From an uncultured Spirochaetota bacterium (GTDB taxonomy: Bacteria > Spirochaetota > Spirochaetia > SZUA-6 > Fen-1364): a DNA stretch of 64,000 nucleotides. Position 1 is the stretch's first letter, and every line of letters begins with the position of its first letter. The notes below the pieces were generated by a model. It worked only from the letters and a program-made list of their open reading frames with translations. It ran no database searches and was not told where the DNA came from. Below, piece after piece: positions 16,894 to 56,107 of the stretch. The stretch spans positions 2,767,465-2,831,464 of the forward strand of contig CAWGAA010000001.1 of NCBI GenBank assembly GCA_963820525.1, written 5' to 3'. Made by a program: the position numbers and the translations under genes.

Positions 16894-17019
16894 ATCAGGT
16901 CTCCCACGTCCCATAGAAAACATACACTGTAACTACTATTATGGCATCCCCTTAAGACACAATCCACACCAACTCCGCGACATTGTCGCCGCCTGCCGTT
17001 TCTTCGTACCTTTCAGCCT

Positions 17020-17355: not shown

Positions 17356-17480
17356 GGCAACTACGTCGGGCTGTCGAGCTTGAAAGCAAAATAGGGCGAA
17401 AGATCACAGAACCAGCGCGTGGGCGATACTACTCCGCGAAGATTTCTGTGTGGGCAGCAGGCCATACTTTTGCGAGCTCC

Positions 17481-18239
17481 TTAACCAGCGCCATAGATAC
17501 TCCCGAGCTGCTCCAGCACCTCGTCCAGTGAGCTTTGGATAATGCCCATGCTTTTCAGGTCGATCGGCTCGCTTCGTACTTCACTGAGAAACCTACGCAT
17601 GTCGGCCCGGATATTCGGGGGAACGTCCGCGCGAGGGGCGGGATCGATAATTCGGTAGAGCCGGAACACATCATTGCGATGCTTGCTGATGTCGCTGCTG
17701 TGAATCTTGTGGCCGGCCTCCCTGCGCTCTCTGAGGTCGAGCCAGGCACGAGCTTTCAAAGGAACCAGGTGCTCGGGCCCAACCACGGAAACGCCTTCAA
17801 CGATCCGAATGCCGTCCTTGAGAAAAGCGTAGTACTCGTCTTGGAGAAGAATCGCGGACAGGCTTGATATCCCGTCACCGAAGGGAATTGGGGTGAGATG
17901 TACGCCGTGTGCCGGTTCAAGTCGATCTGGCCGGATGGAGAGTATCTCCAGCATGCTCGGAAACCCCGGCACCTGCGGCGAGACAAATCGATAATACGTG
18001 GGTCTGCCCTCGCCTGACTGCGCCACGCTGTACTGTCCTGCCCGGATGAAGTTCCAGAAGGACCTTGCGAACCCGGAGTCGAGCGCCTCAGCTATCAGCA
18101 CGATGTCCAGGTCCCTGGTTGCTCGAAACGCCAACCCCACCTGCTCCATTAGGAGGTCACAGGCGGAGCCGCCGATCAGTGCGTACTGGTGAGTCCGCTC
18201 CCTGAAGTGGTCCCGAAACAGTTCCAAGCCGGCTACCAC
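17481..18239 (-). CDS. Nucleotidyltransferase-fold protein (AbiEii-like toxin candidate)
   Basis: 252 aa. Pol-beta NTase motif IGGSACDLLMEQVGLAFRATRDLDIV (G-S...D-x-D). GTG start overlaps the upstream gene by 7 nt. Confidence 0.65.
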   Translation of the reverse strand: MVAGLELFRDHFRERTHQYALIGGSACDLLMEQVGLAFRATRDLDIVLIAEALDSGFARSFWNFIRAGQYSVAQSGEGRPTYYRFVSPQVPGFPSMLEILSIRPDRLEPAHGVHLTPIPFGDGISSLSAILLQDEYYAFLKDGIRIVEGVSVVGPEHLVPLKARAWLDLRERREAGHKIHSSDISKHRNDVFRLYRIIDPAPRADVPPNIRADMRRFLSEVRSEPIDLKSMGIIQSSLDEVLEQLGSIYGAG

Positions 18240-28942: not shown

Positions 28943-29147
28943 ATTTTACCAGATGCCGAAAGCACCCTCAATCGAGCGGGGGCTTGCTTGTTAAACGATT
29001 ACAGCCTATTCCTTAATAAGAAAACTCGTAATTAAAGTTTGCTTATAGAAGTCGCGGCCGATCCTGATTACTATTTTTCCCGATCAATCGAGTTCACCAT
29101 GAATATCCTTCTTGCAATGGATGATTTTCATGGTGTATCATAGGGCC

Positions 29148-30308
29148 ATGGTAGAGCGCGCTTTTATACTCGATAAATTGAAGGTGGCCCTGTCGCGCAG
29201 TCGCGTCGTCGTACTGGCCGGGCCGCGCCAGTGCGGCAAGACGACGCTGGCACGGCAACTTCTCAGCGAGGATTCGGTCAACTACTTCGACCTGGAGGAT
29301 CCTACCGGCCTTGCTCGACTGGATGAGCCAATGACCGCGCTCGGACATTTGCAGGGCCTGGTAGTGATCGACGAGGTGCAGCGGCGGCAGGATCTTTTCC
29401 CCGTTTTGCGGGTTCTGGCAGATCGTCGGGACAACCCCGCCCGTTTTCTGATTCTGGGCAGCGCTTCGGGCGACCTTCTGCGTCAGACTTCGGAGAGCCT
29501 GGCGGGGAGAATGGAGCGCGTGACAATCAGCGGCTTTTCGCTGCGGGAGTTGGGCGCAGAAGCGGAACAAACCTTATGGCTGCGCGGCGGTTTCCCGCTC
29601 TCCTACCTGGCAGGCAGCGAAGCCGATAGCGCGGAATGGCGGAAGAGCTTTATCCAAACCCTGCTTGAACGTGATTTCCCGCAATGGGGCGTCCGCGTGC
29701 CTGCCGTGGCCTTGCAGCGCTTCTGGACAATGCTCGCGCACTATCATGGACAGACCTGGAACGCGGCCGAACCAGCCCGGGCGCTGGGTGTGAGCGAATC
29801 CACCGCCCGCCGCTATCTCGATCTGCTGACGGACGCCTTCCTTATCCGGCAGTTGCATCCCTATTATGCCAACATCAGCAAACGGCAGGTCAAGGCCCCA
29901 AAGGTCTCCGTGCGCGACAGCGGGCTTTTGCACCAGCTTCTCGGCATCAACACGCTGAAGGAACTGCTGAGCCATCCCAAAGTCGGCGCCTCATGGGAAG
30001 GGTTTGTTATCGAGCAGGTATTGATGACGGAGCCGCATGACGAAGCCCTCTTCTGGGCCACGCATCAGGGAGCGGAGATCGACCTGATCCTGAGGCGTGG
30101 CAGCGAGCTTTTGGGCGTAGAGTGCAAGCGGACCGACACTCCACGCATGACCCCGTCCATCCGCATCGCCCTTGAAAATCTTGGGCTTGCGCGGGTGGCC
30201 GTGCTCTACCCCGGGACGAAGCGTTTTCCAATTACGGAACGGGTGGAAGCCGTGCCTCTTCAGACGATGGTCAAAGGTATTTCGCTTTTCGAGGGGGGCG
30301 AGTCATGA
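29148..30308 (+). CDS. AAA-type ATPase with DUF4143-like C-terminal domain
   Basis: ATG at 29148 (MVERAFILDK). Walker A LAGPRQCGKTTL and Walker B VVIDEVQ. Architecture recalled as AAA_14 plus DUF4143. Confidence 0.7.
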   Translation: MVERAFILDKLKVALSRSRVVVLAGPRQCGKTTLARQLLSEDSVNYFDLEDPTGLARLDEPMTALGHLQGLVVIDEVQRRQDLFPVLRVLADRRDNPARFLILGSASGDLLRQTSESLAGRMERVTISGFSLRELGAEAEQTLWLRGGFPLSYLAGSEADSAEWRKSFIQTLLERDFPQWGVRVPAVALQRFWTMLAHYHGQTWNAAEPARALGVSESTARRYLDLLTDAFLIRQLHPYYANISKRQVKAPKVSVRDSGLLHQLLGINTLKELLSHPKVGASWEGFVIEQVLMTEPHDEALFWATHQGAEIDLILRRGSELLGVECKRTDTPRMTPSIRIALENLGLARVAVLYPGTKRFPITERVEAVPLQTMVKGISLFEGGES

Positions 30309-32381: not shown

Positions 32382-34358
32382 ATGGAGATGATGAGCGCAA
32401 CCAAGAAAGCTACAACCTCAAAGTCGTCAAAGATTGCCTCGGGCTCATCTACAAAAGCTCGTAAGATCACTTTGAGGCCTTTGTCATCACCCCTAAAGGT
32501 CAAATCAACTTCCGTATCTGACTCCCATAGGTCCATCATGGTGATTTCCGAGAACGGCAAGGAAGTCCGGCTACTTCTACACCGTTTTGCACTCGTCGGG
32601 CCCAGCGACAAGATCTTGTTGGACTCGGCACAAGCCTCCCGAATTTTTGTTGAGTCTGCGGATCCATCTAGAAAGGCCATACCCGTTTCGCCGCACTTTG
32701 AGAAAAGGTCAACTTTACGCTTGGGAGCAAGAGACTATTCGATTCTCGTGAAGGAAATAACCACTCCAAGCGACCTCAAGGAATACGAGTATCTAGAGGG
32801 CTTTCACTATAAGACTTCCTCTGCCATCGTTACTGACGAAGATGAGCCGAGCAAAAGCGGCCTCAATGTTGGTGGAAGAAAAGCCATACTTATCGCCTAC
32901 ATCCAAGTTGGCAAGCGCATGATACCTGCCGGGTACATAGATCTCCAAATGCCTTTGCTAATGGTAAAGCCAAGACACGAGCTCTTTAACAACGGCTTTT
33001 TCCACCCTGATCGCGATATCTCTTGGGATACATGGGATATCAAGAGCATGAGGAAATACGTAAATCTGATTGTTAGGATTGCAAGAATAGTGACAAGCCC
33101 CGATCTTAGGGGCTTAGGTCTTGCACGCATAATAATCGATGCTGCTAAAGACTATGCCAGAGAACGGTGGCATGTCTATGGCAAGTCTCCACTCTTCATG
33201 GAAATCTCAGCTGAAATGCTCAAGTACATGGACTTCGTGACATCTGCTGGAATGCATTTTGTCGGTAACACCGAAGGAAATCTTTCGAGAGTTCACAAAG
33301 ATCTACTTCAAATGCAGAGAGGCCAGAAACTCACTTTTGGGATTATGACACTTCAGAAAAAGTATCTCACGAACTTAAGGCATCTATCGGAAAGTCTACA
33401 CATCTCTTTTCCAGAGGTGCTCGATAGACTGAAGGCACTTACTAAAAACTCTAGCGAAAAAGAGCTTCGATCAAAACTGAATAAATTGAGTGGTCAAGAA
33501 TGGTTCCTATTCAAAAGAGTGCTCAGATTCCCTATTCCATATTTTATATGTGGCCTAGATGATGCGTCCGAATCATTTGTACAAAAACACTCACTAACCC
33601 CTCCAAGCAAGACTACCCAAAACAAGACATTTCAATCTGCAAGGATTGGACTTAAGGATATTAGAGCTACCTCGACATACGAGATCCCAGACAGTGAGCA
33701 AGCTCGCGCGATACGTGACTGTTTTGGACTTGATGGGAATACTTTGAAGGTATCTCTCGTCGGACCTGTCACAATAGAGGCCTCGGGGGGAAACATCATT
33801 CTGATTACGGGTCCAAGCGGAAGCGGAAAAAGTGTACTTTTGCGAGCAATCGCAGATGACAGTGAGACGAAACTAATTCATACCACATATATAAAAACCG
33901 TTGACAAACCATTCGTAGTTGGTTGGCTGACCGAAATTAATAGTGATAAACCCATTATTGAATACTTCAGTGGTATTTGGGGAATGGAATCCTCTATTTC
34001 TGCATTAAATCAAGCAGGATTGTCCGAAGCATTTGTATATCTGAGGCCATATAAACTCTTAAGTAGAGGACAACAATATCGTGCGCGTCTAGCTGCGCTT
34101 AGCCTTGGCTCGGCTAACGTTTGGCTTATGGATGAGTTCTGCGCAGACCTTGATCCCTTCACTGCCCGAATTGTATCAAATAATTTGCGGAAGCACGTTG
34201 TGAGAACTGGAAGGATCGCGATAGTTGCCGCAGCAAACAACGCTCACTACATAGACGCGTTGATGCCCAACAGGATCATCTACCTTAGGCACAACGGCCG
34301 TTGCGAGGTATTTAAATATAAGGAATACATAGATGAGTTTCGTATCAACGCAAGCTGA
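32382..34358 (+). CDS. Island gene 1: GNAT-like acetyltransferase domain fused to a C-terminal ABC-type ATPase
   Basis: 658 aa. GNAT acetyl-CoA loop IVRIARIVTSPDLRGLGLARIIIDAA (R-G-L-G-L-A from 33108). Walker A GPSGSGKS at 33810..33833. ABC signature LSRGQQ at 34059..34076. Walker B VWLMDEF at 34119..34139. No TM domain. Confidence 0.8.
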   Translation: MEMMSATKKATTSKSSKIASGSSTKARKITLRPLSSPLKVKSTSVSDSHRSIMVISENGKEVRLLLHRFALVGPSDKILLDSAQASRIFVESADPSRKAIPVSPHFEKRSTLRLGARDYSILVKEITTPSDLKEYEYLEGFHYKTSSAIVTDEDEPSKSGLNVGGRKAILIAYIQVGKRMIPAGYIDLQMPLLMVKPRHELFNNGFFHPDRDISWDTWDIKSMRKYVNLIVRIARIVTSPDLRGLGLARIIIDAAKDYARERWHVYGKSPLFMEISAEMLKYMDFVTSAGMHFVGNTEGNLSRVHKDLLQMQRGQKLTFGIMTLQKKYLTNLRHLSESLHISFPEVLDRLKALTKNSSEKELRSKLNKLSGQEWFLFKRVLRFPIPYFICGLDDASESFVQKHSLTPPSKTTQNKTFQSARIGLKDIRATSTYEIPDSEQARAIRDCFGLDGNTLKVSLVGPVTIEASGGNIILITGPSGSGKSVLLRAIADDSETKLIHTTYIKTVDKPFVVGWLTEINSDKPIIEYFSGIWGMESSISALNQAGLSEAFVYLRPYKLLSRGQQYRARLAALSLGSANVWLMDEFCADLDPFTARIVSNNLRKHVVRTGRIAIVAAANNAHYIDALMPNRIIYLRHNGRCEVFKYKEYIDEFRINAS

Positions 34359-35730
34359 AAAGTTTGCAGCGGTTTTCGATAGATCTCCTTATCAGTCCAC
34401 TGATCCGATCGTTAAAATTCAGTACGTTCAAAAGGGCAATAATGTTGTTTTTGGTCGAACTCTATCAGGCGAGAACTATGACAAACTAATCTACCTCGGC
34501 AAGGTTTACGAGAATACCGCCGGGAAAAACTACCTTAGTTCAGACGCTTGGCTGGATGTTGGCTACCCGCACGTAATCTATATTACGGGAACGCGAGGAA
34601 GCGGGAAGAGCTTTGACTTAGGCGTCTTGATCGAAGGCATTTCCGAGCTATCTAATCCATCAACAGCGCAGAACAACGTCCAGCCTATCTGCTCGATAGT
34701 AATTGATACGCAGAGCCAATTCTGGACTCTAAACTATACGCCAAACCCGGCTGTCAAGGAGAACAAGGAGCAACTAGCCGAACTTAAGAAATGGAATATT
34801 AGTCCCAATTCTCTGAAGCATTGCAGGCTTTATATTCCTCCCTCAACCGAGAGAATAACAAACACTGAAACCATATTCCAGATTCGAACATCCGACGTAC
34901 GACATGAAGAATGGTGTGCTTTAATCGGTGAGCAAATATACAGTCCTCAAGGGCATGTCCTTGGCCAAGCTCTTGAGGATCTTTCTGGAAAGGCCTATTC
35001 GCTTGAAGATCTGATCTCGTATGTTGCAAATGGAGACAATTGGGATAATGTTCCTGAAGTCTCTCGAAATGCAATCGTCTATAAGCTTGAGGGTTACCGT
35101 CGAACAGGGCTTTTCAGTGCAAAAGGAATCGACATTTGCACGCTACTTTCACCTGGTCAGTGTTCAGTATTTCTTTTGCGGGATCTTAGGAACGAAGACA
35201 AAGCCCTAATCACTTCTCTGATAGCACGCCAACTTTCAAGCATCTTGGGTGCTCACCATAAAAAGCTCAAAGTCAGCAAATTCTTCGAAAGAAAGGAAGA
35301 GGACGACGGACTTCCAAATACAGTTTGGATGTTTATAGATGAGGCTCATGTGGTTGCTCCAAACGGTTCAGTGTCTCCTGCCACCAATGCTCTTATAGAT
35401 TATGTAAAGCGTGGTAGAGATGCAGGACTGTCCTTGGTAATGGCCACGCAACAACCCTCTGCTGTTGATGATAGAATATTGAGCCAAGTCAATATCACAT
35501 TCTCGCATAGACTTACATTTCAAAATGACATAAGTGCTGCGATAAACCGAATACCTACTAAGCTTCTAAAGGACTTGAAATATGCAGGAAGAGATATAAC
35601 AGATTTTGGCGACATGCTTCGGTATCTCGAGGCTGGTGAATGTTTCTTGGGCGATCACAACACTAGCAGAGCTGTCTTGGTTTCTATTAGGCCAAGGGTG
35701 ACTCCTCATGGTGGTTATAACCCAAGCTAA
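34333..35730 (+). CDS. Island gene 2: HerA/FtsK-like (DUF87-type) P-loop ATPase
   Basis: 465 aa. Walker A GTRGSGKS at 34588..34611. Walker B VWMFIDEAH at 35323..35349. LVMATQQPSAVDDRILSQVNITFSHRL is typical of HerA-clade ATPases. AAGGAA SD; 26-nt overlap with gene 1. Confidence 0.8.
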   Translation: MSFVSTQAEKFAAVFDRSPYQSTDPIVKIQYVQKGNNVVFGRTLSGENYDKLIYLGKVYENTAGKNYLSSDAWLDVGYPHVIYITGTRGSGKSFDLGVLIEGISELSNPSTAQNNVQPICSIVIDTQSQFWTLNYTPNPAVKENKEQLAELKKWNISPNSLKHCRLYIPPSTERITNTETIFQIRTSDVRHEEWCALIGEQIYSPQGHVLGQALEDLSGKAYSLEDLISYVANGDNWDNVPEVSRNAIVYKLEGYRRTGLFSAKGIDICTLLSPGQCSVFLLRDLRNEDKALITSLIARQLSSILGAHHKKLKVSKFFERKEEDDGLPNTVWMFIDEAHVVAPNGSVSPATNALIDYVKRGRDAGLSLVMATQQPSAVDDRILSQVNITFSHRLTFQNDISAAINRIPTKLLKDLKYAGRDITDFGDMLRYLEAGECFLGDHNTSRAVLVSIRPRVTPHGGYNPS

Positions 35731-36910
35731 CCCATATCTCACAATTAGTCGTAAAATTGGCTACTCTGTCGGCCTTGAATCACTCAACGAACGTGTCTTT
35801 GAGCTTGTAAAGCTCTACGATACTGAAAAAGGGCTTTCCTTTGCTTCATTTACCAATCTTGTAGAGAAGACATATGCTCGCAAGAATGCTGTGGAACATT
35901 TTGCCAATTTTTATGGTACACTTAATCTTGTTAGGCTTGTCGGAAGAGATATTGAGCCGCTTTTCAGATTAGACACTCTTGCTATTCTACGCAGACTCTT
36001 CCTTGATGACGAACCAAAATTCTTACTATGTCAACGAATCATTCTGACCCTGCTAATCATTGAGGCAGACGGGGATGTATTCCTTAATGGCCTCTTCGCT
36101 GATTTCAAGCCAAACGAGATGAAGACAAAGCTCGAAGCGATGTCCTTCACAAAAATCCAGCGTCTACAGACTGTATTTCCGACGAAAGCCTTGTTAGCGC
36201 AAATGGCTAGCATAATAAACATCAAAAACCAAACTCAGAAGAATGCAATTTCAGATGAAAAGCTTGGTCGCTTCGAAAAACGTAAAATGCCACTTGAGAT
36301 GGGAAAAAGAACTACAAGCCTAGATACTTCAGTTTATTTGACGCAAAACATCTCTGAAGACTACCTTGACAAGACCAGCAAGACAAGAAAGGGATGGGCA
36401 CAAGACTTATTGCTGTTTAAAGGAGAGAAGCGAACGGCCATAGGGGACAAACTGTTGAGCTTTCTATTTGAGAATATAGTCTCCACCGACATTGAACGCA
36501 GTTGTATACTTTATTGGGGCTATAAATCTGATCTAGACCGTATTCGAGTTGACCCCTCAAAAATCAGTGCTATTTCCTTCGAAGAATGGGATCTCATCTC
36601 TCAGATTTCAAAGGCCTATAAAGGGGAAACTTCCGTGGGGACACAGAAACTCTCCGATGATCAATTGTACAAGCTGTTCTTAAAAATGCATCAACTTTAT
36701 AGAGAAGCGTCCTCTTCACGGGGATCTATTCGAAACAGTTTACCCTTGTATATCGCTGAGCCAATTCTCGCTGCGTATTGCGTTGCAAAGAACATTCGGT
36801 TGCCCGACATAAACGCCTATCTAAAGAAAGAGTTCACTCGACCAGTTCGACGTATCCAAAGAATGATAATCCGTGGTACCCTCGGAGCGCTTTACTTCAT
36901 GAAGGAATAA
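35708..36910 (+). CDS. Island gene 3: hypothetical protein, no recognisable motif
   Basis: 400-aa ORF with island-like composition. Overlaps gene 2 by 23 nt and ends 1 nt before gene 4. Confidence 0.65.
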   Translation: MVVITQANPYLTISRKIGYSVGLESLNERVFELVKLYDTEKGLSFASFTNLVEKTYARKNAVEHFANFYGTLNLVRLVGRDIEPLFRLDTLAILRRLFLDDEPKFLLCQRIILTLLIIEADGDVFLNGLFADFKPNEMKTKLEAMSFTKIQRLQTVFPTKALLAQMASIINIKNQTQKNAISDEKLGRFEKRKMPLEMGKRTTSLDTSVYLTQNISEDYLDKTSKTRKGWAQDLLLFKGEKRTAIGDKLLSFLFENIVSTDIERSCILYWGYKSDLDRIRVDPSKISAISFEEWDLISQISKAYKGETSVGTQKLSDDQLYKLFLKMHQLYREASSSRGSIRNSLPLYIAEPILAAYCVAKNIRLPDINAYLKKEFTRPVRRIQRMIIRGTLGALYFMKE

Positions 36911-36911
36911 T

Positions 36912-37796
36912 ATGGCTGTACACATCACCAAAGAGTTTCTCAACGATCTAAGAGAGGCCGATGATCTAAGGTTTGTCAGACAAGTATTGAATCACACGAT
37001 AGACCGTGACGGTGATTTTGCAGACGACAAGGATGATCATAGATATAAGGACATCGATGATGCTTGGATACGCTGCGTCAGTAAAGGCGCAACTGCTTTC
37101 CGGGTAATATTCATAAGAAAAGGTTCAGACATATATCTCTATAGAGCTGGACATCATGACATTGAAGATCATTTGGCGCCTGCGCGCTCCTTTTCCTCGT
37201 CTATTACACTGGCAGAAGGCCCAATCAAACAGCCTCAAGAATATAAAGAGCAAGTTCCTCAGCAGATTTTTCTTAAGAACTCTGAACCTGCCTTCATAAA
37301 CAAGTTCCTGATAAGCATGTATCACTTGAGGCATCATGAGATCTACATTGTGTCTCCTTTTCTGGACTTGCCGATTCTATCTAGCAAGCATCACTTTGGT
37401 AGATTCCTTGACAAAGCAAAGGAAGAGGGAACCGATGTTATTTTGATCACGCTACCTCCAAAAAATGACGATGAGATTACTGTTTTTAGAGACTTGGAGT
37501 TACGAGATATTCGAGTATTCTTTCTTCCTAGACTGCACACAAAGCTATATATCTTTAATGTGGACCTTGAATCGAGAACTTTCTATCAGCGCGGTGTCTT
37601 CGGAACAGCTGTACTCGGATCCTCCAATTTGACATGCCCGGGTCTTGGTTTCGATGAACTGCAGCCTAATGAAGAGCTTTGTTCCACGTTTCACACCGAT
37701 AGAATTGACGAATTGAAGGATTATGTTCTAAAGTTGATGTTTCGCTCTCAGGACTTTACAGATTTTATGCAAAGAAGAAGGAGACAGCAACGATGA
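36912..37796 (+). CDS. Island gene 4: RelE/ParE-like N-terminal domain fused to a PLD-family (single HKD) nuclease domain
   Basis: 294 aa. N-terminus WIRCVSKGATAFRVIFIRKGSDIYLYRAGHHDIED resembles the RelE/ParE C-terminal strands. HKD motif LHTKLYIF...VLGSSNLT at 37536..37628. GAAGGA SD. Confidence 0.75.
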   Translation: MAVHITKEFLNDLREADDLRFVRQVLNHTIDRDGDFADDKDDHRYKDIDDAWIRCVSKGATAFRVIFIRKGSDIYLYRAGHHDIEDHLAPARSFSSSITLAEGPIKQPQEYKEQVPQQIFLKNSEPAFINKFLISMYHLRHHEIYIVSPFLDLPILSSKHHFGRFLDKAKEEGTDVILITLPPKNDDEITVFRDLELRDIRVFFLPRLHTKLYIFNVDLESRTFYQRGVFGTAVLGSSNLTCPGLGFDELQPNEELCSTFHTDRIDELKDYVLKLMFRSQDFTDFMQRRRRQQR

Positions 37797-38932
37797 TTGC
37801 TCCGGAGACATTTTATAAAGCTGCCAATCTGAGGGACAATCCTTTTCGAACAAACCCTGCCGCCGAGGCAGATCCTCGAAGAGGCATCTGGATAGGGTAT
37901 CTGAATGAAAGAAACACGTTGACGAAGTATCTCCAGCGTTCTTTGTCTGACAACGTTGGGAATATCAACTTTGTAATGATTTACGGCGAATTGGGTAATG
38001 GCAAATCGCACGCTCTGCTTTGGTCTCAGCATTTGGTGCTTGTTGCAGAAAACGAGAAATACAACAGTGTTGCATATTATATTCAAAGCCTAAAGCGCGA
38101 CAAAGGCAAAATGTCATTTGTCTCAGCGTTCAATGAAGACATTGTTGGCAAGTCCAATCTTGCGGGAGATCTCCTAATCTATAAACAGTTTGTCTCTGAA
38201 TGCATAATCGAGTATAAGCGAGATAACGCGCTCGGACCTGATGTAAGCAATGATAAGGTGGCTGAGCGACTCATTCCATCAATGGATATGCGTAATACGC
38301 TTACAAAAATTCTGAAATGTGAAACCGAGGACAATATAAGAGGCCTCTTAGGCACTGACACAGACTACTCTGCGATGCTGCTCTTCTGCCAAATTGTGAA
38401 TCTGTTTGTTCACCCTTATGAACTTGCAGCAGGCAAGAAGAGATACAAGAAATGCGTCTATCTCTTCATTGACGAGATGGACGTTCTAGGTGAAGTCCCT
38501 CCCAAAGAAGCCAGAGATGTTAACGCCTTGTTACGACATATCTATGACCTTTGCCCAAATTGCTTCTTCCTTGGGCTTGGCTTCACTGCAACTGCCGCTG
38601 AGCTTGGGGTTCTTTTCGATGAATTTGTTCTTTCTAGAGTTTCGAAGCAAATCACTCTGCAGTTCATGCAGCCTGTAGAAGCTCAGGACTTCATTCGCCA
38701 AATACTCAATACAGTTCGAATTGATAACAAGAAGCACATTGATTATTTCCCATTCACGGAAGACGCGGTTGGGACAATAGTCTCACGAATGGTGTCAATA
38801 ACTCCACGAAAAATCGTTAATCAAATGCTGCAGATACTCGAAGAATGTCGCCTAGCAGATCTTGATCCGTCAAAGGCTCCGATCTCTACAACCCAACTCG
38901 ATGAAAAGGAGATATGGGAGATGGTGGATTGA
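37793..38932 (+). CDS. Island gene 5: P-loop NTPase (AAA/STAND-like, possibly BrxC/BrxD-DUF2791-related)
   Basis: 379 aa. Walker A GELGNGKS at 37985..38008. Walker B VYLFIDEMD at 38456..38482. ATGA overlap with gene 4; GAAGGAG SD. Confidence 0.75.
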   Translation: MIAPETFYKAANLRDNPFRTNPAAEADPRRGIWIGYLNERNTLTKYLQRSLSDNVGNINFVMIYGELGNGKSHALLWSQHLVLVAENEKYNSVAYYIQSLKRDKGKMSFVSAFNEDIVGKSNLAGDLLIYKQFVSECIIEYKRDNALGPDVSNDKVAERLIPSMDMRNTLTKILKCETEDNIRGLLGTDTDYSAMLLFCQIVNLFVHPYELAAGKKRYKKCVYLFIDEMDVLGEVPPKEARDVNALLRHIYDLCPNCFFLGLGFTATAAELGVLFDEFVLSRVSKQITLQFMQPVEAQDFIRQILNTVRIDNKKHIDYFPFTEDAVGTIVSRMVSITPRKIVNQMLQILEECRLADLDPSKAPISTTQLDEKEIWEMVD

Positions 38933-39792
38933 GCAAGAAAATTGTCGGCGCAAAGACGAAGGCTCAGAAAGTCCTCGATGGCTTTGCGCAGTCAGAATGT
39001 CTCCCCATAGTGCAATCCATATCATCCATGCTAATTCGACTCCAAACAGCGTTTGACCTCCTTGGCAAATCGATTATGCACACTGACCAGAACTCTTCTC
39101 CTGTCATAGATCCTTCCACCATCCTTGAAGCAATTGAAAGCATGAAGCTTTCAGAGTTTTCTCTTGATAAAGATGCTGTAGATAATGCTCGCAAATGGGC
39201 AATTTTCCAACTTGCCACGACCTATAGCAACCTTGGAGAGTTGATTCGACAACACTGTGCCGAGCGAGCGATAAAGATAGACGGCGGCCCACGATCTTTC
39301 ATTCTTGCTAATTTTCTGCATATTGTAATCGATTTTGAATCAAATGCCGTGTTTATAGAAGACAAAAAACTCGAGCGACTATCCACTTCCGCTATTCTTA
39401 AGTTGATCGATGCGGAAATTTCGAATGAAAACAAAAGAAGCCCGAGCTCGAGTGAATTCCTACTTGCTTGTTATCGGGCATATAGCTACCTCATAAAGGC
39501 TTCTGCTCAAGAGTATGGTACTCCTATGAGAGTTCGCGATGTTTACAAACAGATTATTATTGCGAGTCAGCCGGAGAAATTTTGGAAGAACCCCAATCGC
39601 GCAAACCTATTTGAATATGATGAACATCTCTTCAAGCGAGATCTTGTACGACTCTTTCTTGAGAACTCTTCGGCCCTTCCAACTGGTGAAAGTATTGAGC
39701 TATTGCCTACTGCCTTTCCTAAACAAGGGATTCCAATCCCTTTGCCCGAAGGCACAAGATACATCGGTCATATTGCCTTCCGCAGAGCATAA
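38914..39792 (+). CDS. Island gene 6: hypothetical protein, no recognisable motif
   Basis: 292-aa ORF. 19-nt overlap with gene 5; ends 2 nt before gene 7. Start uncertain because the SD is too close to ATG 38914. Confidence 0.6.
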   Translation: MGDGGLSKKIVGAKTKAQKVLDGFAQSECLPIVQSISSMLIRLQTAFDLLGKSIMHTDQNSSPVIDPSTILEAIESMKLSEFSLDKDAVDNARKWAIFQLATTYSNLGELIRQHCAERAIKIDGGPRSFILANFLHIVIDFESNAVFIEDKKLERLSTSAILKLIDAEISNENKRSPSSSEFLLACYRAYSYLIKASAQEYGTPMRVRDVYKQIIIASQPEKFWKNPNRANLFEYDEHLFKRDLVRLFLENSSALPTGESIELLPTAFPKQGIPIPLPEGTRYIGHIAFRRA

Positions 39793-39794
39793 CA

Positions 39795-41102
39795 ATGCTT
39801 GAGCTTTCTATTGAGACTGCTAGAAGGATCATAAGCCATCTAAAATCGGGAACTACTCCTATCGATTGTGTTCAACATCTCAACGTTGGCAACGAGAAGT
39901 GGTATTCTGCTGCAGAACGGCAACTTAAGGATATTTCAGTTGATGGGGATTCTTTGGTTAGATTCATAAACGGCTATTACGGCGACGGTAAGACGCACTT
40001 CCTTGGAATGCTAAGGGCGATAGCTTTTTCGAACAGGTGGGCGGTGTCTTATGTCTCAGCTGAGAACACTCCATTACACAAATTTGATGTCGTTTATTCT
40101 GAAATCATTCGGAACCTTAGCATTCCCCGTTCTTTGACACTTCCAGAATGGATTGCCAAAGAAGATTGTAGAGGTGCACCAGCAATACTTGGAGCGCTTT
40201 TCTTTCGCTTTTACTTTGAGGCATACAGATTATCAGACAACGCTGGCTTACGAAAAGAAAGAGTAATCGAAACTATTCGACATAGGGTAGCGACATTTTG
40301 TTCCCAACCGGATATCTCGGAGCCTCTCGGAGTCGCGATTAGGTACTATTTCGAGGCTATAATAAAGGGAGACTCCTCAACCGCTCATTCGCTTTGTGAA
40401 TGGCTTGAAGGAATGGATGCCCGCGTTGACGGATTGCCTGTTCTGAAGAGGATCGATAAGCTTCGATCCAGAGACGCAAGTCGGGGACTATCGATAATCA
40501 CCAAGGCCTCGGGCATCTCTGGAGTTCTTATACTGATCGATGAGGCCGAGCGGATCATGGAACAGTCCCGATCTATACGCAACAAGAGCTACGGTGTTCT
40601 TAGAGATCTCTTAGATAATGCGGATGACCATGGCGGAATGACCTCAACCATCTATTATGTTGCTGCTACCCCGGAAATGTTTGAAACTGCAAGCGGTTTT
40701 GCTGAATACGACGCACTACGTTCGCGGCTTTCTAACATCGCTATCGCCTATGCCCCCGACTTAATAGATTGGCGCGGTACTCTTGTTAACCTAGTGAAGA
40801 CCCCAATGAGTCCCGAGAACCTATCTTCTTTAGCGCGAAAAGTTATCGGAATCCACTCTATTGCCCGTCAATGGAATCCATCTTCTATCCTTTCTGAGGA
40901 CTTGATCGATAAGATTATTGAAAAGGTAGTTGCTGGCGTCTTTTCATCTTCCAAGCCTCGTATAGTAACCTCTTTCTTCGCTAATCTGCTTGAGCTTCTG
41001 GAACAGAATAGAGAATATCCGCTAAACGATGGTATCGAAAGCGTATTGTCCTACATAGTGCCAATCCTCAAGACGAAGCCAAAAGCAAAGTCTTGGGAAT
41101 AG
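39795..41102 (+). CDS. Island gene 7: P-loop NTPase, BrxC/BrxD (DUF2791)-like
   Basis: 435 aa. Walker A GYYGDGKT(H) at 39972..39995. Walker B VLILIDEAE at 40524..40550. Size and G-x-Y-G-x-GK-[ST]-H context recalled from BREX BrxD-type ATPases. Confidence 0.7.
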   Translation: MLELSIETARRIISHLKSGTTPIDCVQHLNVGNEKWYSAAERQLKDISVDGDSLVRFINGYYGDGKTHFLGMLRAIAFSNRWAVSYVSAENTPLHKFDVVYSEIIRNLSIPRSLTLPEWIAKEDCRGAPAILGALFFRFYFEAYRLSDNAGLRKERVIETIRHRVATFCSQPDISEPLGVAIRYYFEAIIKGDSSTAHSLCEWLEGMDARVDGLPVLKRIDKLRSRDASRGLSIITKASGISGVLILIDEAERIMEQSRSIRNKSYGVLRDLLDNADDHGGMTSTIYYVAATPEMFETASGFAEYDALRSRLSNIAIAYAPDLIDWRGTLVNLVKTPMSPENLSSLARKVIGIHSIARQWNPSSILSEDLIDKIIEKVVAGVFSSSKPRIVTSFFANLLELLEQNREYPLNDGIESVLSYIVPILKTKPKAKSWE

Positions 41103-41107
41103 ACCCA

Positions 41108-42235
41108 ATGATTTCAAACCAACTAAAGCTCAGGCGGAACATTCGCTACCTCAAGAGAGGCGTATTCCCGCCTGAAGACATTGAACAATTTACTTTTGGT
41201 CGCGAGCGTGAATTGGCTGTCATTCAGAAAAAGCTATCCGAAGTAAAGGATGGTTGCTGTAGATCTCTCTTTATTCAGGGCGTGTACGGACGAGGGAAAT
41301 CACATTTATTAAAGTCAATTGAGGCCTCAGGTCTACAGAGAGGATTTGCTGTGGCTTGGGTTACAATAGACGGATATGCGCATGCCTTCAATCACCCAAC
41401 TAGGTATCTGCATTCCATTTCGGAAAGCATTCGCTTTCCATCCAGTCCTTATCGAGGTCTTGCGGCCAACGCTCGTGCTTGGTTATCGGGCGACAAACGT
41501 GAGACCCTTCTTTCATATCTCAGAAGCTCTCGCAATACTTGGATGTCTTTTGCACTTCAATCAATTGCAAGAGATCATCCTTCGTTTCTCGAAAACCATT
41601 ACAACAGCATTATTGAGAGTCGAGACCTCTTGGGCAAGAACGGTAAACAATGGTTTGAGCTGGTCGTAGAACGGCTAGATGATATTAGCCGTTTATGTAA
41701 GCTTGTAGGACACGGCGGAGTCATTTACCTTTTTGATGAGATTGAATCAATCGCCACCCAATTGTCCACGATTAGGCAGAGGCTATTGTCCTATGAGTTT
41801 TTAAATATGCTTATCGATGAACGTCGACATGCCCATAGCTTTCTTGCATTCGCGGCTACCCCAGATTTTGGAAATAAGATATTGGAAGATGTAGCAGCTA
41901 TTTCAAACTATGAAGCTGATTATGCTGATGCATGCAGATTCATTAGGAAATGGATTTCTAACAGCGTAGACTGCATAAATATCAACAGGTTATCAAAAGA
42001 CTGTCTCTTCCTTCTCTGTGAGCATATTCGAACTATTCATGAGAAGGCGTATGAATGGAAATCAAACGGGGCAGTATCCTCGGAGAGCATTAGGACGTTG
42101 GTTAGCGAGTGTTTCGCAAAAAACCTTGGAACGAGAGAGATTGTCAGAACAGTCGTTCATCTTCTTGAGGTCCATGAGCAGCTCTCTCATACGCATTCTT
42201 CCAGTCATAGCAGACTGAACGACGAAATCAAATGA
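41108..42235 (+). CDS. Island gene 8: P-loop NTPase, BrxC/BrxD (DUF2791)-like paralogue
   Basis: Track start 41093 is TTG. The ATG at 41108 (MISNQLKL) lies 5 nt after the gene 7 stop. Walker A GVYGRGKS(H) at 41279..41302. Walker B VIYLFDEIE at 41720..41746. Confidence 0.7.
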   Translation: MISNQLKLRRNIRYLKRGVFPPEDIEQFTFGRERELAVIQKKLSEVKDGCCRSLFIQGVYGRGKSHLLKSIEASGLQRGFAVAWVTIDGYAHAFNHPTRYLHSISESIRFPSSPYRGLAANARAWLSGDKRETLLSYLRSSRNTWMSFALQSIARDHPSFLENHYNSIIESRDLLGKNGKQWFELVVERLDDISRLCKLVGHGGVIYLFDEIESIATQLSTIRQRLLSYEFLNMLIDERRHAHSFLAFAATPDFGNKILEDVAAISNYEADYADACRFIRKWISNSVDCININRLSKDCLFLLCEHIRTIHEKAYEWKSNGAVSSESIRTLVSECFAKNLGTREIVRTVVHLLEVHEQLSHTHSSSHSRLNDEIK

Positions 42236-42574: not shown

Positions 42575-44237
42575 TTACCCCTTCACCTCCAGTATCTCCT
42601 CAGGTATATGTGTAATAAGCTTCACCAGTTCCTCGAATCTAAAGTCAATGTCCATCACGGCATACATCTCCTTCTTGGAGTTGTAGATCGGCATCGCCGC
42701 CGTCATGATCAGCTTGTCCGTGTACTTGGAGAAAAAGAGATCCGAGTAATACGGCTCTCCGGTCTTCAGGACCGCGACAAACCAGTCATGCTTCCTGAAG
42801 TCCTTGTTCATGAGGTTTCTGAAAAGACTCTTCTCCCCGCGCTGGGTGTGCGCCTGGGAGATGCGCAGGCCCTCCAGGTTTGTCACGGCAAGAAGCTGGA
42901 TGGAGGCCTCCCGCGTCACCACGTCATGGAGGTAGCTCTCCATGCGCTCTGCATCCAGGGAGCGCACCTCCTCTGAGACGGAGATGTGCTGGGCGATGTG
43001 GCGGGCCTTTTCAATCGCGGCCTCTTTAGCTTTCTGGAAGTCGGAGACGAAAAGCGAGGGCAGGAAATGCTTTGCCTGCGCCACAAGCTCATCAGCGGAA
43101 ATGCTTGTGGTTCGGCCTTGGGCATACTGCTCAGTGACCCAGGCGTTGATGTGCTTGATGCCGGGGTGGCGCTTGACCACCGGCTCCATGGCCCTGCCCG
43201 TGAGCTGCGGGATGTTTTTGTTTATCCATTGCGCAATTCCCGCCATGCCGGATTTGTCCGTCACCATCACGCGGATGGGCCTGTTCAGAAGAGCCTCAGT
43301 ATCAAAAATGTTATAGATCTCCGGGTTCTTGAGGATGCCGTCCGCGTGGATGCCCGCGCGGGTCACGTTGAACTCGACCCCACAAAGGGATAGTTGGGTG
43401 CAACGGGAGCCTGGATCTCCGTCCGGAAATAGTCAGCAATCTCCGTGATGACACGGGTGTTCATGCCATCCGGCGTTCCCTTAAGCCCTATGTACTCCAC
43501 CACCGCGGCTTCAAGCGGCGGGTTTCCCGTGCGCTCGCCAAAGCCCAGCACCGTGGCGTTTAGCGCGGAACATCCGTACAGCCAGGCGGATGTGGCGTTC
43601 ACGTGCACCTTGTGAAAATCGTTGTGGCCGTGCCACTCCAGAAGCAGAAGCCGTAGATGTCCGCGCGCGTAATATCTTCAAAGTGACAGCGCGGCCGTAT
43701 GCCCTCCTCAAGCGCTGATTTCACAATGGCAAGGTAGTCTTCCATGACCTTGGCGCGGTTTGACTTGAACTTGAGAAACACGTGGTAGTCTGAGACAGAG
43801 GTGAGGATGCCCGTCTCCTTGAGGCCTAACCCCTTTACTATAGACAGATCCTTTGCGTCAGCGCAAATCCATCCCGTCACCTCGGGGAACGGGTGTCCCA
43901 GGGCAAGGCAGGCCTCTACCGCCTGCGCGTCCCGCTTGGAGTACAGGAAGAACTCGCTTTATCTGATCACGCCCTTGGGGCCGCCCAGCTTGTGGAGAAG
44001 CCCAAAGATGAGGGCAATCTGCTCCGGGGCATACGGCGGCCGGGCCTGCTGGCCGTACCGGAAAGTGGTGTCCGTTATCCAGATGTCCTTGGGAGGGTTC
44101 AAAGGCACTTCCAGGCCGTCAAAGAGGATGCGCGGGATATCGGAATAGGGGAATTGCTCCCGGTAGAGGTTGGGTTCCGCGGGAGATTCAAGGGGGAACG
44201 TGCGCCTGACAGGCAAAGGAGAGAAGGTGCTTTGCAT
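42575..44237 (-). pseudogene. Disrupted homocitrate/isopropylmalate-synthase-like (HMGL-type) gene with C-terminal Cache-like domain
   Basis: Four consecutive track ORFs (43959..44237, 43599..43880, 43363..43608, 42575..43366) form one protein. Motifs are TDTTFRYGQQ; HFEDITRADIYGF; HGHNDFHK; GERTGN; and GIHADGILKNPEIYN plus a Cache-like tail. First break: in-frame TAA at 43959..43961 (GVIR*SEFFLYSKRD). Second break: a frame-changing deletion between DIYGF and LEWHGHNDFHK near 43608..43640. Third break: a 1-nt deletion near 43371 (YPFVGS/EFNVTRAG). The start ATG and GGAGG SD are retained. Confidence 0.8.
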
Positions 44238-44382: not shown

Positions 44383-44814
44383 TCATGCTAGACCGCAAAA
44401 GCCTATCACTTTTTCAGCCAGCTCGCCCAAATCCTTCCGCGCCTCAGAAAGCGCATAGTCAAGGAACTCTGCCAGCGGATCTGTATCCCTCTCCCAGTAT
44501 GGCTCAACAAAAGAGATGCCATATTTCTTTACCAATCGGTCGAGAGCAACGGCGCAGACGAATACATCATCAATGTATCCCGCTGGGCCGTAGATCTTTT
44601 CCGGAAGCAGGTCGTTCGGTACAATCAAATAGCCCAGGACGCAGAGAATAGTCATTCTGTCTTCCGCTTGTAATTCCGGCCGGTCAAGGACGCCGGACAA
44701 AGCCTTGAAGATCGCGGGGAGGTAATAAATGTATTCCTTGATAGAACCGTGATAGGCGTTGATCTCCGTTTCCAGAAAATCGTGATAATCCTCAGGCATT
44801 TGTGCTTTTGCCAT
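44383..44814 (-). CDS. DUF1232 (YkvA-like) domain protein
   Basis: Track start 44820 is TTG. The ATG at 44814 follows AAGGAG with a 7-nt spacer. VPNDLLPEKIYGPAGYIDDVFVCAVAL resembles the DUF1232 core. Overlaps the helicase stop. Confidence 0.65.
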   Translation of the reverse strand: MAKAQMPEDYHDFLETEINAYHGSIKEYIYYLPAIFKALSGVLDRPELQAEDRMTILCVLGYLIVPNDLLPEKIYGPAGYIDDVFVCAVALDRLVKKYGISFVEPYWERDTDPLAEFLDYALSEARKDLGELAEKVIGFCGLA

Positions 44815-54952: not shown

Positions 54953-56107
54953 ATGCAGCCAAATGACTTTGCTCGTAGCACCAGCGGAAGGCTCATTCAT
55001 TTGCCGCAGGATTATTGGGCATTCATTCCCAATCCACTGGAACCTCAAATAACATTCAGCCTGCCGTTTGCGCAGGAGCTTTCTGAAGCCAATAGGGTGC
55101 TGGGTGAACTGGCAGGTATTGCCAGGACTCTTCCAAATCTTCATTTATTGATTGGCCCTTTCATCCGCAGGGAAGCCGTGCTTTCAAGCAGAATTGAAGG
55201 GACGCAGGCTTCCTTGTCTGATCTTCTTTTCTTTGAAGCGGCAAACCTCAGGTTGAAAGAAGTACCGGATGTCAAAGAAGTCTCCAACTATGTCCAGGCT
55301 TTGACCTATGGCCTTGACCGTTTGAAAGACCTTCCCATTTCCCTCCGCCTGATCCGGGAGCTTCATGAGCGCTTGATGCGGGATGTCCGGGGAGAGACGC
55401 AGACTCCCGGCGAGTTTCGACGCTCTCAGAACTGGATTGGCCCGGCAGGGTGCCCGCTTTCAGATGCGGCTTTCGTACCGCCTCCAGTGGAAGAAATGAA
55501 CGCGGCGCTTGATCTTTTTGAAAAGTATCTCCCTGCGTCCTCCGATATGCCTGAGCTTGTCAGGCTTTCCCTGATCCATTATCAGTTTGAGGCAATTCAT
55601 CCATTTTTTGACGGAAATGGCCGGATTGGCAGATTGCTGATCACTCTCCTTATGTGCTCCTACAACCTGCTTTCGAAGCCCCTGTTGTACCTCAGCCCCT
55701 ATTTTGAACAGCAGAGGGACGAGTATTACTCTCTTTTGCTTGCAGTAAGCCAGAAGGGCTCATGGGAAGATTGGATCAGGTTCTTTATTCATGCGGTTGC
55801 CGTGCAATCTCGAGACGCCATCAAAAGGTCGGATCTGCTTCTTCACCTCAGGCAAGAGTACCATTCGCGCATGCAGAAAGCCCGTGCTTCCGCATTGCTC
55901 CTCAGAATGGTGGACAAGCTGTTTGTCAGCCCCGCTTTGACGAATCCCGGCGTAGCGCGGGAGATGAAAATAACCCCCAGATCAGCCCAGCTGAATTTGG
56001 ACAAGCTTGTTCGTGAAGGAATCATACGTGAGGCAACAGGGCAAATGCGAAAACGTGTGTACGTTGCGCCACGGATCATTGAAATCCTTGAGAAGTTGGA
56101 TGTGTAG
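54953..56107 (+). CDS. Fic-family protein (class II, N-terminal inhibitory helix)
   Basis: 384 aa. Fic motif HPFFDGNGRIGR. Upstream SSRIEG fits the [ST]xxxE[GN] autoinhibition motif. C-terminal wHTH-like region. Confidence 0.88.
   Translation: MQPNDFARSTSGRLIHLPQDYWAFIPNPLEPQITFSLPFAQELSEANRVLGELAGIARTLPNLHLLIGPFIRREAVLSSRIEGTQASLSDLLFFEAANLRLKEVPDVKEVSNYVQALTYGLDRLKDLPISLRLIRELHERLMRDVRGETQTPGEFRRSQNWIGPAGCPLSDAAFVPPPVEEMNAALDLFEKYLPASSDMPELVRLSLIHYQFEAIHPFFDGNGRIGRLLITLLMCSYNLLSKPLLYLSPYFEQQRDEYYSLLLAVSQKGSWEDWIRFFIHAVAVQSRDAIKRSDLLLHLRQEYHSRMQKARASALLLRMVDKLFVSPALTNPGVAREMKITPRSAQLNLDKLVREGIIREATGQMRKRVYVAPRIIEILEKLDV

Follow-up and report, generated by a model that had tools for sequence, protein, structure and literature searches.

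The chromosome of an uncultured Spirochaetota bacterium (assembly GCA_963820525.1, contig CAWGAA010000001.1) contains an operon of eight tightly coupled genes, g1 to g8, of which five (g1, g2, g5, g7 and g8) encode P-loop NTPases, and this raises the question of what such a set of genes does for its host. The operon lies in a stretch of 64,000 nucleotides (positions 2,767,465 to 2,831,464 of the contig), which we refer to as the window, and a preliminary description of this DNA had taken it for a candidate undescribed defence system. Here we show that the operon is a composite, consisting of a conserved five-gene core (g1-g5) and a three-gene triad (g6-g8). A defence role is plausible as judged from the sequence. 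For the more specific reading that the operon is a HerA-centred system directed against foreign DNA, in which the product of g1 would act on nucleic acid as a self-marking enzyme, we estimate a probability of about one half. The g1 product, a GNAT acyltransferase fused to a single ABC-type nucleotide-binding domain (NBD), is the distinctive and most interesting part of the operon.

Modular build of the operon

All eight open reading frames (ORFs) are located on the + strand, and together they form an operon of 9.85 kb (32382-42235 of the window). The junctions are, in order, a 26-nt overlap, a 23-nt overlap, a 1-nt gap, a 4-nt ATGA overlap, a 19-nt overlap and a 2-nt gap; at the last one, between g7 and g8, the mechanically assigned start of g8 (TTG at 41093) gives a 10-nt overlap, and an in-frame ATG at 41108 gives the 5-nt gap of the preliminary description, with whose other coordinates and junctions ours agree. 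Its domain calls (GNAT plus ABC, HerA, PLD/HKD and three further NTPases) and its number of five P-loop NTPases were likewise borne out by Pfam scans and orthologue profiles. The GC content between about 32.0 and 42.8 kb is 0.40-0.49, mostly 0.42-0.46, compared with 0.58-0.66 in the chromosome upstream, and the right edge of the trough is sharp, rising to 0.60 at about 42.8 kb. The low GC content reported earlier is therefore real, but the figure of 40% that had been given should be about 43-44%. This composition suggests that the operon was acquired horizontally.

An alignment of the g1 family led to 25 loci from species-representative genomes of Alpha-, Beta- and Gammaproteobacteria, Binatia, Spirochaetia and Rokubacteria (individual loci are given L numbers below). 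In most of them g1-g5 are colinear, with like sizes and overlapping junctions, and because this order is kept in many unrelated genomes the ORFs are real genes and not products of chance. Identity to the window proteins decreases across the loci from g2 (52-64%) through g5 and g1 (about 37-51%) and g4 (30-39%) to g3 (23-37%). Exceptions to the five-gene arrangement are L016, which has no detectable g5, and L027, which retains a frameshifted g1 alone; in L015 (9884-15119), a metagenome-assembled genome (MAG) of a spirochaete of the Spirochaetia (OZ241879.1), g2 is not detectable and g1 is followed directly by g3, g4 and g5. Downstream of g5, the genes vary by locus. In L001 (17190-21842; Pseudothauera rhizosphaerae SSOD01000011), for instance, two further same-strand genes come after the core, one of 109 aa and one encoding a 2,147-aa protein with an AAA_16/NACHT-like STAND NTPase region, a giant partner distinct from the helicases of the triad described below, and in L004 (16491-20071; uncultured bacterium) same-strand ORFs of 531 and 657 aa come directly after g5.

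The full eight-gene form was found in four other places, a betaproteobacterial MAG and three metagenomic contigs, whose g1 shares 61-67% identity with that of the window. It is solely in these closest relatives that g6-g8 follow g5; most genome loci with g1-g5 do not have them. Thus, the view of the preliminary description that the eight genes form one system holds insofar as the eight-gene form recurs, but the operon is not an indivisible unit, since it consists of a core and a triad that is autonomous elsewhere. Conservation of gene neighbourhood, which had been proposed as a check, was found for g1; the homologues of g7 mostly occur apart from the core (see below).

Among the core genes, g2 (34333-35730, +) encodes a 465-aa HerA/FtsK-type P-loop ATPase, presumably a hexameric DNA translocase. 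It matches DUF87 (E 5.5e-7, above the Pfam cut-off) and HerA_C, and weakly matches several HerA models of PADLOC and NCBIfam, which cover only its C-terminal ATPase region at scores far under the NCBIfam cut-offs. This is the best-conserved gene of the cassette, reaching 73-77% identity in the closest relatives. Its Walker A motif GTRGSGKS is present in 26 of 28 sequences and its Walker B motif in all 28, as DEAH or DEAQ, and a GRDAGLS..ATQQPS block is near-invariant.

The fastest-evolving core gene is g3 (35708-36910, +), which encodes a system-specific orphan protein of 400 aa, a candidate specificity or DNA-binding subunit. It has no match in Pfam, PADLOC, NCBIfam or profile searches of PDB sequences. 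At 50% identity, a set of 1.84 billion proteins contains 171 representatives of its family; the full-length members have about 360-420 aa, the shorter ones seem to be fragments, and the length of no member leaves room for an additional domain. The AlphaFold2 (AF2) approach that had been proposed for this protein gave a confident model (predicted local distance difference test, pLDDT, 90; predicted template modelling score 0.89) made up of helix-helix-helix-hairpin units that resemble winged helix-turn-helix (wHTH) domains. It did not lead to an assignment, however: Foldseek found nothing significant in PDB or BFVD, and the best weak matches were wHTH proteins.

The 294-aa product of g4 (36912-37796, +) has two domains, a strongly conserved N-terminal one of about 90 aa and a C-terminal one of the PLD/HKD nuclease type. 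The PLDc_2 match is below the Pfam cut-off in the window protein but is present in 16 of 21 orthologues, and the NgoFVII PLD domain found in 14 of the 21 marks the domain as being of the restriction-enzyme type. The window protein retains H209-x-K211 and G236-S-S-N, and HxK is also intact in the other three eight-gene loci that were checked. The N-terminal domain, whose fold has no assignment, has eight invariant residues (D42, H43, R54, S57, R64, R78, G80 and H82). A likeness to RelE/ParE, suggested by eye, was rejected: a ParE_toxin match (E 0.03) occurs in just one of 21 orthologues and there is no PDB match. Against approximate sequences of RelE, YoeB, ParE, HigB and YafQ, the local hhalign score was 12.4, within the 8-15 of shuffled controls, and phmmer found nothing in the loci.

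The core is closed by g5 (37793-38932, +), encoding a 379-aa AAA+ ATPase that is Orc/Cdc6- or BrxC/D-like. Matches are weak but consistent, to AAA_16 and AAA_22 in 22 of 22 orthologues and to BrxC_BrxD in 16 of 22, and the Walker A motif (G65-x2-G68-x-G70-K71-S72) and the Walker B residue D227 are invariant. Its identity is 39-50% in five-gene genome loci and 58-62% in the eight-gene relatives. A comparison of g5 with g7 by hhalign aligned just the Walker B region, at 10% probability.

The triad is opened by g6 (38914-39792, +), another fast-evolving orphan, of 292 aa, without a family match in Pfam, PADLOC or NCBIfam; a broad profile of the g6 family finds nothing in PDB. In the eight-gene relatives it shares 25-34% identity with the window protein, versus 50-62% for g5 and g7. 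Each module thus has one fast-evolving orphan, g3 or g6, beside conserved enzymes, a pattern typical of components that have to deal with a variable target. The middle gene, g7 (39795-41102, +), encodes a BrxD-like Orc/Cdc6-type AAA+ ATPase of 435 aa that matches BrxC_BrxD of Pfam over its full length (172 bits, E 2e-50) and the PADLOC models of BrxD (130 bits) and SngB (100 bits); its Walker A (GDGKT) and Walker B (DEAE) motifs are invariant in 39 homologues. The last gene, g8 (41093-42235, +; 380 aa from the TTG), encodes a BrxD-like AAA+ ATPase paralogous to g7, with matches to BrxC_BrxD (99 bits) and AAA_16, Walker A GRGKS, Walker B LFDEIE, and 24% identity to g7 over about 400 aa (E 3e-16). 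Scores of 128 bits for g7 and 61 bits for g8 against the NCBIfam model BREX_BrxD, whose cut-off is 350, show that neither is an equivalog of BrxD. g8 comes directly after g7 in the four eight-gene relatives and in the loci of a sister cassette that is described in the next section, and holds the same place in many more distant loci of the g7 family. BrxD-like pairs are immediately preceded by homologues of g6 in the sister cassette (E ~1e-21) and in 37 of the 80 genome loci to which an alignment of the g7 family led.

These 80 loci, which are mostly from Desulfobacterota, Chlamydiota, Latescibacterota, SAR324 and Legionellaceae, show the triad in another setting, since 77 of them are without any g1-g5 gene. 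In nearly all of the 29 full-length loci that were examined, two BrxD-like genes come after a gene of about 280 aa and are followed by the gene of a giant protein of 1,600-2,300 aa. Three of the giants were scanned, and they have an N-terminal helicase of superfamily 2 (SF2), DEAD/Cas3-like, and a C-terminal one of superfamily 1 (SF1; AAA_11/AAA_12). The giant helicase is split into two genes in L040, where there is also a weak PD-(D/E)XK match, and apparently in a few other loci. This four-gene cassette spans the loci L038-L114 (e.g. L045:9126-18398 and L073:9042-18146). Because the triad nearly always precedes a giant helicase elsewhere, we conclude that it is an autonomous unit whose usual partner is a DNA motor. 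In type 2 BREX systems, BrxD is paired with the helicase BrxHI, and BrxD has been proposed to be the loader or activator of its partner DNA motor (PMC12839542); the triad plus giant helicase echoes this dyad.

The GNAT-ABC fusion and its counterparts

The signature gene of the five-gene core is g1 (32382-34358, +; 658 aa). In the window protein, ABC_tran is matched with an E of 8e-10 and the GNAT match is weak, but Acetyltransf_1 is found in all 15 of 15 family members, and when the N-terminal GNAT profile was compared with PDB, the weak matches at E below ~2 were all to GNAT-type acetyltransferases. Across 26 homologues, the Walker A motif, the LSxGQ signature, the Walker B residues D584-E585 and the H-loop do not vary, and the acetyl-CoA loop (R243-G244-x-G246) varies little or not at all. 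The AF2 model (pLDDT 82.5) consists of a small beta domain (residues ~38-100), the GNAT domain (~100-300), a helical linker and the NBD (421-655). The best Foldseek matches of the NBD are transporter and ABC-F-type NBDs (MJ0796, MacB, HrtA and EttA) and not those of the SMC/OLD type, so that the likening of this ATPase to those of Gabija, Septu, Lamassu and PARIS in the preliminary description does not stand. More than 300 homologues, of about 620 aa, were found. Labels of the family at JGI and NCBI are generic ("ABC-type ATPase with predicted acetyltransferase domain", "GNAT family N-acetyltransferase"), and none of the plasmid records in PLSDB encodes g1.

Two kinds of relative bear on what g1 might do. 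One is the sister cassette, which was found through g7 homologues at 42-47% identity. Its gene order is small PLD protein, ATPase of about 380 aa, DUF87/HerA protein, protein of about 420 aa, g6-like protein, g7 and g8. The homologue of g2 is recognised with E values of 1e-26 to 1e-34, that of g6 as stated above, and those of g7 and g8 by clear tblastn matches; in hhalign comparisons, the small PLD protein matches the PLD domain of g4 (92%, E 7e-7) and the 382-aa ATPase matches g5 (78%, E 2e-5 over 313 columns). g1 is absent. In its stead, and on the same strand, are genes for a ParB_N protein, a 649-aa TGT/DUF5591 protein and a sigma-54-type AAA+ ATPase. The set of TGT and ParB was found in three of four looked-up loci, the fourth being cut by a contig end, and in two genome loci of Verrucomicrobia, one of which is on the same contig as a looked-up locus; the loci with TGT and ParB_N are L032, L033, L036 and L037. 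One sister locus in addition contains QueC, QueD, QueE and FolE, the genes of preQ0 synthesis. Together, a TGT, a ParB-like ATPase and preQ0 synthesis are characteristic of 7-deazaguanine DNA modification (PMC10164549, PMC5699537).

The other kind of relative is found in large phages. The ABC part of g1 matches 28 phage records from three groups: SSU5-like phage-plasmids of Salmonella, E. coli and Klebsiella, Pseudomonas syringae phages of about 112 kb (nickie and its relatives), and Rhizobium phages of about 115-122 kb. The phage ABC ATPase has about 215 aa, shares 30% identity with g1 (E 2e-24) and has the same S-x-GQ-x-YR signature. The protein of about 293 aa that follows it matches the GNAT profile of g1 at family-specific motifs (hhalign 96%, 93% and 54%); the labels of its gene range from "ABC transporter ATP-binding subunit" through "MK0520 protein" to hypothetical. 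In the four records examined (L115:2653-5826, L116, L117:1870-6642 and L118:1514-6689), the order of the block is ParB-like protein, ParB-like nuclease domain, ABC ATPase, GNAT-like protein and DNA-binding protein, and in two of the four, those of nickie and RHEph10, the large terminase gene comes directly after it. g1 is thus the fused form of this phage ABC and GNAT gene pair, which is accompanied by ParB-like proteins.

Proposed function and genomic surroundings

How might these components work together? In the reading that we favour, DNA would be recognised by g3 and the Orc/Cdc6-like g5, and these would bring in or load the HerA hexamer of g2, which, judging from its family, would pump or capture that DNA. 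The motifs of g4 suggest that its PLD domain may cut the DNA where the active site is intact, as it is in the window. The ABC domain of g1 would dimerise and couple ATP binding and hydrolysis to acyl transfer by the GNAT domain, and the mark placed in this way on host DNA would cause the pump-nuclease to spare it; g1 would then be the functional counterpart of the TGT and ParB module of the sister cassettes. The two BrxD-like ATPases and g6, as a fast-evolving adaptor, may assist the DNA motor by loading or regulating it, because the same triad lies beside giant helicases elsewhere and because BrxD is paired with BrxHI in type 2 BREX.

The role proposed for g1 was chosen because TGT and ParB take its place in the sister cassettes and because the split form of g1 lies beside ParB-like genes in phages. 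The preliminary description had listed the GNAT domain as a possible effector; in the light of these two observations, it is as likely to be a modifying or self-marking enzyme acting on nucleic acid. That such a role could be directed at DNA is plausible because there are precedents. Mom of phage Mu, an enzyme with a GNAT fold, acylates adenine in dsDNA in a restriction-related conflict (PMC13219725, PMC7261163), DpdA requires the DpdB ATPase (PMC10164549), and ParB-like proteins activate phage DNA-modifying enzymes, namely thymine dioxygenases (PMC13229309). Unlike g1, Mom has no ATPase and is a counter-defence enzyme. One may go a step further and speculate that g1 is the founder of a family of ATP-dependent, GNAT-based nucleic-acid acyltransferases, which would install a novel covalent DNA mark as the "self" signal of the HerA-pump/PLD module, interchangeable with 7-deazaguanine, and that the split pair of the phages and its ParB-like partners protect or process the phages' own genomes. 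We regard this extended proposal as speculative and rather unlikely to hold in full.

It should be noted that several observations weigh against the favoured reading. With respect to g1, the modification role is one that we infer from the logic of gene replacement and from analogy. Its GNAT domain shows no specific similarity to Mom, which is absent from the PDB matches of the GNAT profile; the nearest weak PDB matches are small-molecule acetyltransferases such as SpeG, and the NBD is transporter/ABC-F-like, unlike known DNA-scanning ABC ATPases. The TGT of the sister cassettes is archaeosine-TGT-like and not near the solved DpdA, and the g3 profile has no detectable similarity to the protein at the g3 position of these cassettes. 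Binding of DNA by g3 is a possibility suggested by the wHTH-like units of its model. The location of the phage ABC and GNAT block beside packaging genes could point to a role in packaging instead of modification. In 6 of 21 orthologues of g4, the catalytic His of the PLD domain is replaced by Asn (NxR, NxN or NxK), and the Asn of GSxN is altered in all six. These orthologues (L008, L009, L019, L020, L022 and L028) have intact reading frames and N-terminal domains, and the loss apparently occurred in two separate groups of loci, one consisting of two Pseudomonas and the other of Luteimonas, Caulobacterales and Brevundimonas. PLD cleavage therefore cannot be the universal output, a point on which the nuclease effector proposed in the preliminary description needs qualification: in the loci concerned, either cleavage is dispensable or the effector is something else. 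As to mobility and context, a search for boundaries of the window copy revealed no tRNA and no integrase, and direct and inverted repeats that are short and non-colinear. Many genes flanking 22 of the loci are ordinary metabolic ones, and the indication that these flanks are defence or mobile-element neighbourhoods is suggestive, coming from a raw listing of the flanking ORFs.

Some of these points fit better with an alternative in which there is no self-marking and the system acts by abortive infection. In that case HerA, g5, g7 and g8, together with g3 and g6, would sense invading DNA or phage proteins, and toxicity would come from the PLD domain, the N-terminal domain of g4 and the GNAT domain of g1, the latter as an ATP-gated toxin that acetylates proteins or aminoacyl-tRNA. 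GNAT toxins of the TacT/AtaT type acetylate aminoacyl-tRNA. The similarity of the g1 NBD to transporter and ribosome-associated ABC-F NBDs, and the weak similarity of its GNAT domain to acetyltransferases of small molecules or proteins, would suit such an effector. The motifs of the g4 N-terminal domain and of g1 are invariant although 6 of 21 orthologues have lost the PLD His, which suggests that the essential output is not PLD cleavage. Moreover, where GNAT domains are fused to proteins of conflict systems, they have been read as co-effectors acting on self molecules (PMC10853773). On the other hand, an effector role of g1 leaves unexplained why a module of TGT, ParB and preQ0 synthesis is found in its place, a suicide toxin would be odd as a conserved gene that lytic and temperate phages keep, in split form, beside ParB-like genes, and the RelE/ParE-like nature of the g4 N-terminal domain was not borne out. 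We consider this alternative unlikely, though the most probable of those discussed here.

It is also conceivable that g1-g5 are one system and g6-g8 a separate three-gene system that happens to be its neighbour, the two not cooperating. This would account for the many genome loci in which g1-g5 occur without g6-g8, and for the 77 of 80 g7-family loci without any g1-g5 gene. However, where the triad is found without the core or the sister cassette it nearly always precedes a giant helicase, whereas the triad of the window does not bring along a motor or effector; g5 and g6 overlap by 19 nt, and the order at this junction is the same in the four other eight-gene loci despite the low identity of g6; and the triad is also attached to a kernel of HerA, PLD and g5-like proteins in the TGT-linked sister cassette, which makes two independent associations with a HerA kernel. 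We therefore think it improbable that the two modules work independently. Even less probable, and to our minds very much so, is that the operon has nothing to do with immunity and is a DNA-handling module for segregation, transfer or packaging of a mobile element, domesticated or active, derived from the phage neighbourhood of ParB, ABC, GNAT and terminase genes, with HerA/FtsK as its pump. HerA/FtsK ATPases do drive DNA transfer and packaging (PMC10853773), in phages the homologues of g1 are found just before the large terminase gene and in the company of ParB-like genes, and conjugation genes flank some loci. Yet the conserved cassette contains no replication, capsid, relaxase or integrase gene, its flanks vary, no PLSDB plasmid carries g1, and a restriction-enzyme-type PLD domain and BrxD-like ATPases are better suited to a conflict system.

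If the operon protects against phages or plasmids, it would be a rare but phylogenetically widespread multi-ATPase addition to the HerA/FtsK capture class that is discussed in the last section. We know of no member of that class with this composition that has been characterised experimentally. The occurrence of TGT and ParB in the place of g1, together with the split phage homologues, provides a concrete and testable lead to a possible new DNA modification chemistry. If the lead is correct, it would give a function to phage genes labelled "ABC transporter" in SSU5-like, P. syringae and Rhizobium phages, and an ATP-dependent, GNAT-based DNA modification would be common to bacterial immunity and large phages. 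Finally, the presence of the triad on a HerA kernel here and with giant helicases elsewhere offers a handle on the role of BrxD-type ATPases.

The surroundings of the g1 loci were listed as well. Among 114 ORFs flanking 22 of them are TrbI, VirB8, CagX, TniQ, ParE toxins and DUF932, and PADLOC matches at E < 1e-10 include IetA (several), AbiEi, MzaA, HEC-09, DolB, AriA, PDC candidates and TRIP13. The pooled flank proteins also gave matches to mad3 (E 1e-29), mad8 and mad1 of PADLOC, which are not assigned to a particular locus. Two of the eight-gene copies are flanked by rve or Transposase_mut genes, and the Pseudothauera copy adjoins integrase, PIN-domain and HTH genes. In the window, the flanking chromosomal genes encode a rhamnosidase, whose best matches, at 59-62% identity, are from MAGs of Spirochaetota and Bacillota, components of an ABC sugar transporter, a two-component pair of the His_kinase/AraC type, a TetR regulator, an ICMT-family methyltransferase, a truncated Cache-domain fragment and a chromate transporter. 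Scans for promoters and terminators around the operon gave results at chance level.

Other features of the window lie outside the operon. At the right edge of the GC trough, a 263-aa ORF (42575-43366, -) has a partial dCache_1/PDC sensor domain that scores below the Pfam cut-off, and it lacks a signalling domain. It resembles a truncated gene of a chemoreceptor or sensor, which the insertion may have disrupted. After about 1.5 kb of host-like GC content follows a second low-GC block (~44.3-47.6 kb, GC 0.45-0.53), which holds the gene of a 932-aa UvrD-type SF1 helicase fused to a C-terminal PD-(D/E)XK nuclease (44792-47590, -) and may be an additional acquired defence or repair gene of the same island. 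A DUF4143/AAA_14 ATPase is encoded about 2 kb upstream of the operon (29112-30308, +), and a Fic/DOC-family protein with Fic_N about 13 kb downstream (54953-56107, +). A broad region of intermediate GC content (0.51-0.59) at about 10000-18000, which has genes for MatE, a short-chain dehydrogenase and a 2-oxoacid acyltransferase, may have been acquired as well.

Comparison with known systems

Is this operon a variant of a system that already has a name? When PADLOC was run on the eight proteins it gave just weak single-protein matches (mad3/mad8, HerA and BrxD/SngB), and nothing for g3, g4 and g6. Pfam, PADLOC and NCBIfam scans found no methyltransferase, PglZ, NurA, Sir2, TOPRIM or HNH partner in the operon. 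On both points the preliminary description was correct, and its statement that the operon is undescribed also agrees with the searchable literature, where a GNAT-ABC/HerA/PLD cassette is not described; an earlier mention of the clade in the 2020 classification of ABC ATPases is not excluded, and a text search of the literature for COG2401 gave nothing relevant. As judged by their defining components, MADS, BREX, BRC, Shango, Dpd, SIR2-HerA, DUF4297-HerA and the systems with OLD/SMC-type ABC ATPases do not fit.

MADS, the methylation-associated defence system (bioRxiv 10.1101/2023.03.30.534895), resembles the operon in being an eight-gene operon, and PADLOC gives weak mad3/mad8 matches on g1 and g2 (44 and 67 bits). 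However, mad6 and mad7, which are mandatory together with mad8 in the authors' model, give no PADLOC match, and neither do mad1, 2, 4 and 5; the methyltransferase, specificity subunit and kinase of MADS are absent from the eight proteins of this 9.85-kb operon. With BREX, the operon shares the BrxC_BrxD Pfam family of g7 and g8, but no PglZ, BrxC, BrxA/B, PglX/BrxX methyltransferase or type 4 PAPS reductase was found in scans that covered the operon and flanking ORFs. BREX-related capture (BRC) systems combine HerA/FtsK with GNAT and TGT "DNA-modification" homologues (NAR 2026, PMC12839542). HerA and GNAT are present in the operon too, but PglZ, DUF6079 and DUF4007 are not, there is no STAND match above the Pfam cut-off, and the GNAT domain is fused to an ABC ATPase and not to a TGT. 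The likeness to Dpd, a 7-deazaguanine restriction-modification system, is one of analogy, in that a base-modifying transferase needing a partner ATPase is coupled to a multi-gene restriction module (PMC10164549, PMC5699537); the window operon has no TGT (DpdA), ParB-like DpdB or DpdC, and the canonical restriction genes DpdD-K are helicase-based, not based on HerA, BrxD and PLD. Shango is represented by matches of g7 and g8 to the SngB model alone, with no SngA or SngC helicase in the operon, and there is no SIR2 or DUF4297 match in the operon that would relate it to SIR2-HerA or DUF4297-HerA. Gabija GajA, Septu PtuA, Lamassu LmuB and PARIS AriA differ in that the operon has no TOPRIM/HNH and the g1 NBD does not belong to the SMC/OLD clade, whose defence ATPases have a coiled-coil or insert; the matches of g1 to the PADLOC models of AriA, LmuB and JetC (12-18 bits) are at the level of the Walker A motif.

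A closer relationship is found with the HerA/FtsK capture systems, in which a single mobile operon combines a HerA/FtsK ATPase, an Orc/Cdc6 AAA+ ATPase, a nuclease and a rapidly evolving partner, and whose predicted role is the interception of invading DNA (Rakesh, Aravind & Krishnan, NAR 2024, PMC10853773). According to the passages of that work on capture systems, the described versions have nucleases of the restriction endonuclease (REase) fold, an inactive REase inserted in the Orc/Cdc6 protein, and wHTH proteins. The operon has the HerA/FtsK ATPase, g2, with DUF87, HerA_C and conserved Walker A and B motifs. It has partners of the Orc/Cdc6 family in g7 and g8, through BrxC_BrxD, which is classed as Orc/Cdc6 AAA+ (PMC12839542), and, weakly but consistently, in g5. 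The place of the rapidly evolving wHTH protein may correspond to that of g3 and g6, both of which evolve fast, and the g3 model is wHTH-like, with structural matches that are not significant. It differs in that none of the eight proteins matches an REase or PD-(D/E)XK nuclease, a PLD domain being present instead on the separate two-domain protein g4, in that there are three AAA+ ATPases, and in that a GNAT-ABC fusion is the signature gene. Measured against those same passages, in which this cassette does not appear, the new multi-ATPase complex of the preliminary description does not represent an entirely new kind of system, although the composition it reported is indeed unmatched. The operon is best read as a further variant of the HerA/FtsK capture theme, an architecture that has already been described, here built with a PLD protein, a BrxD-like triad and a GNAT-ABC fusion.

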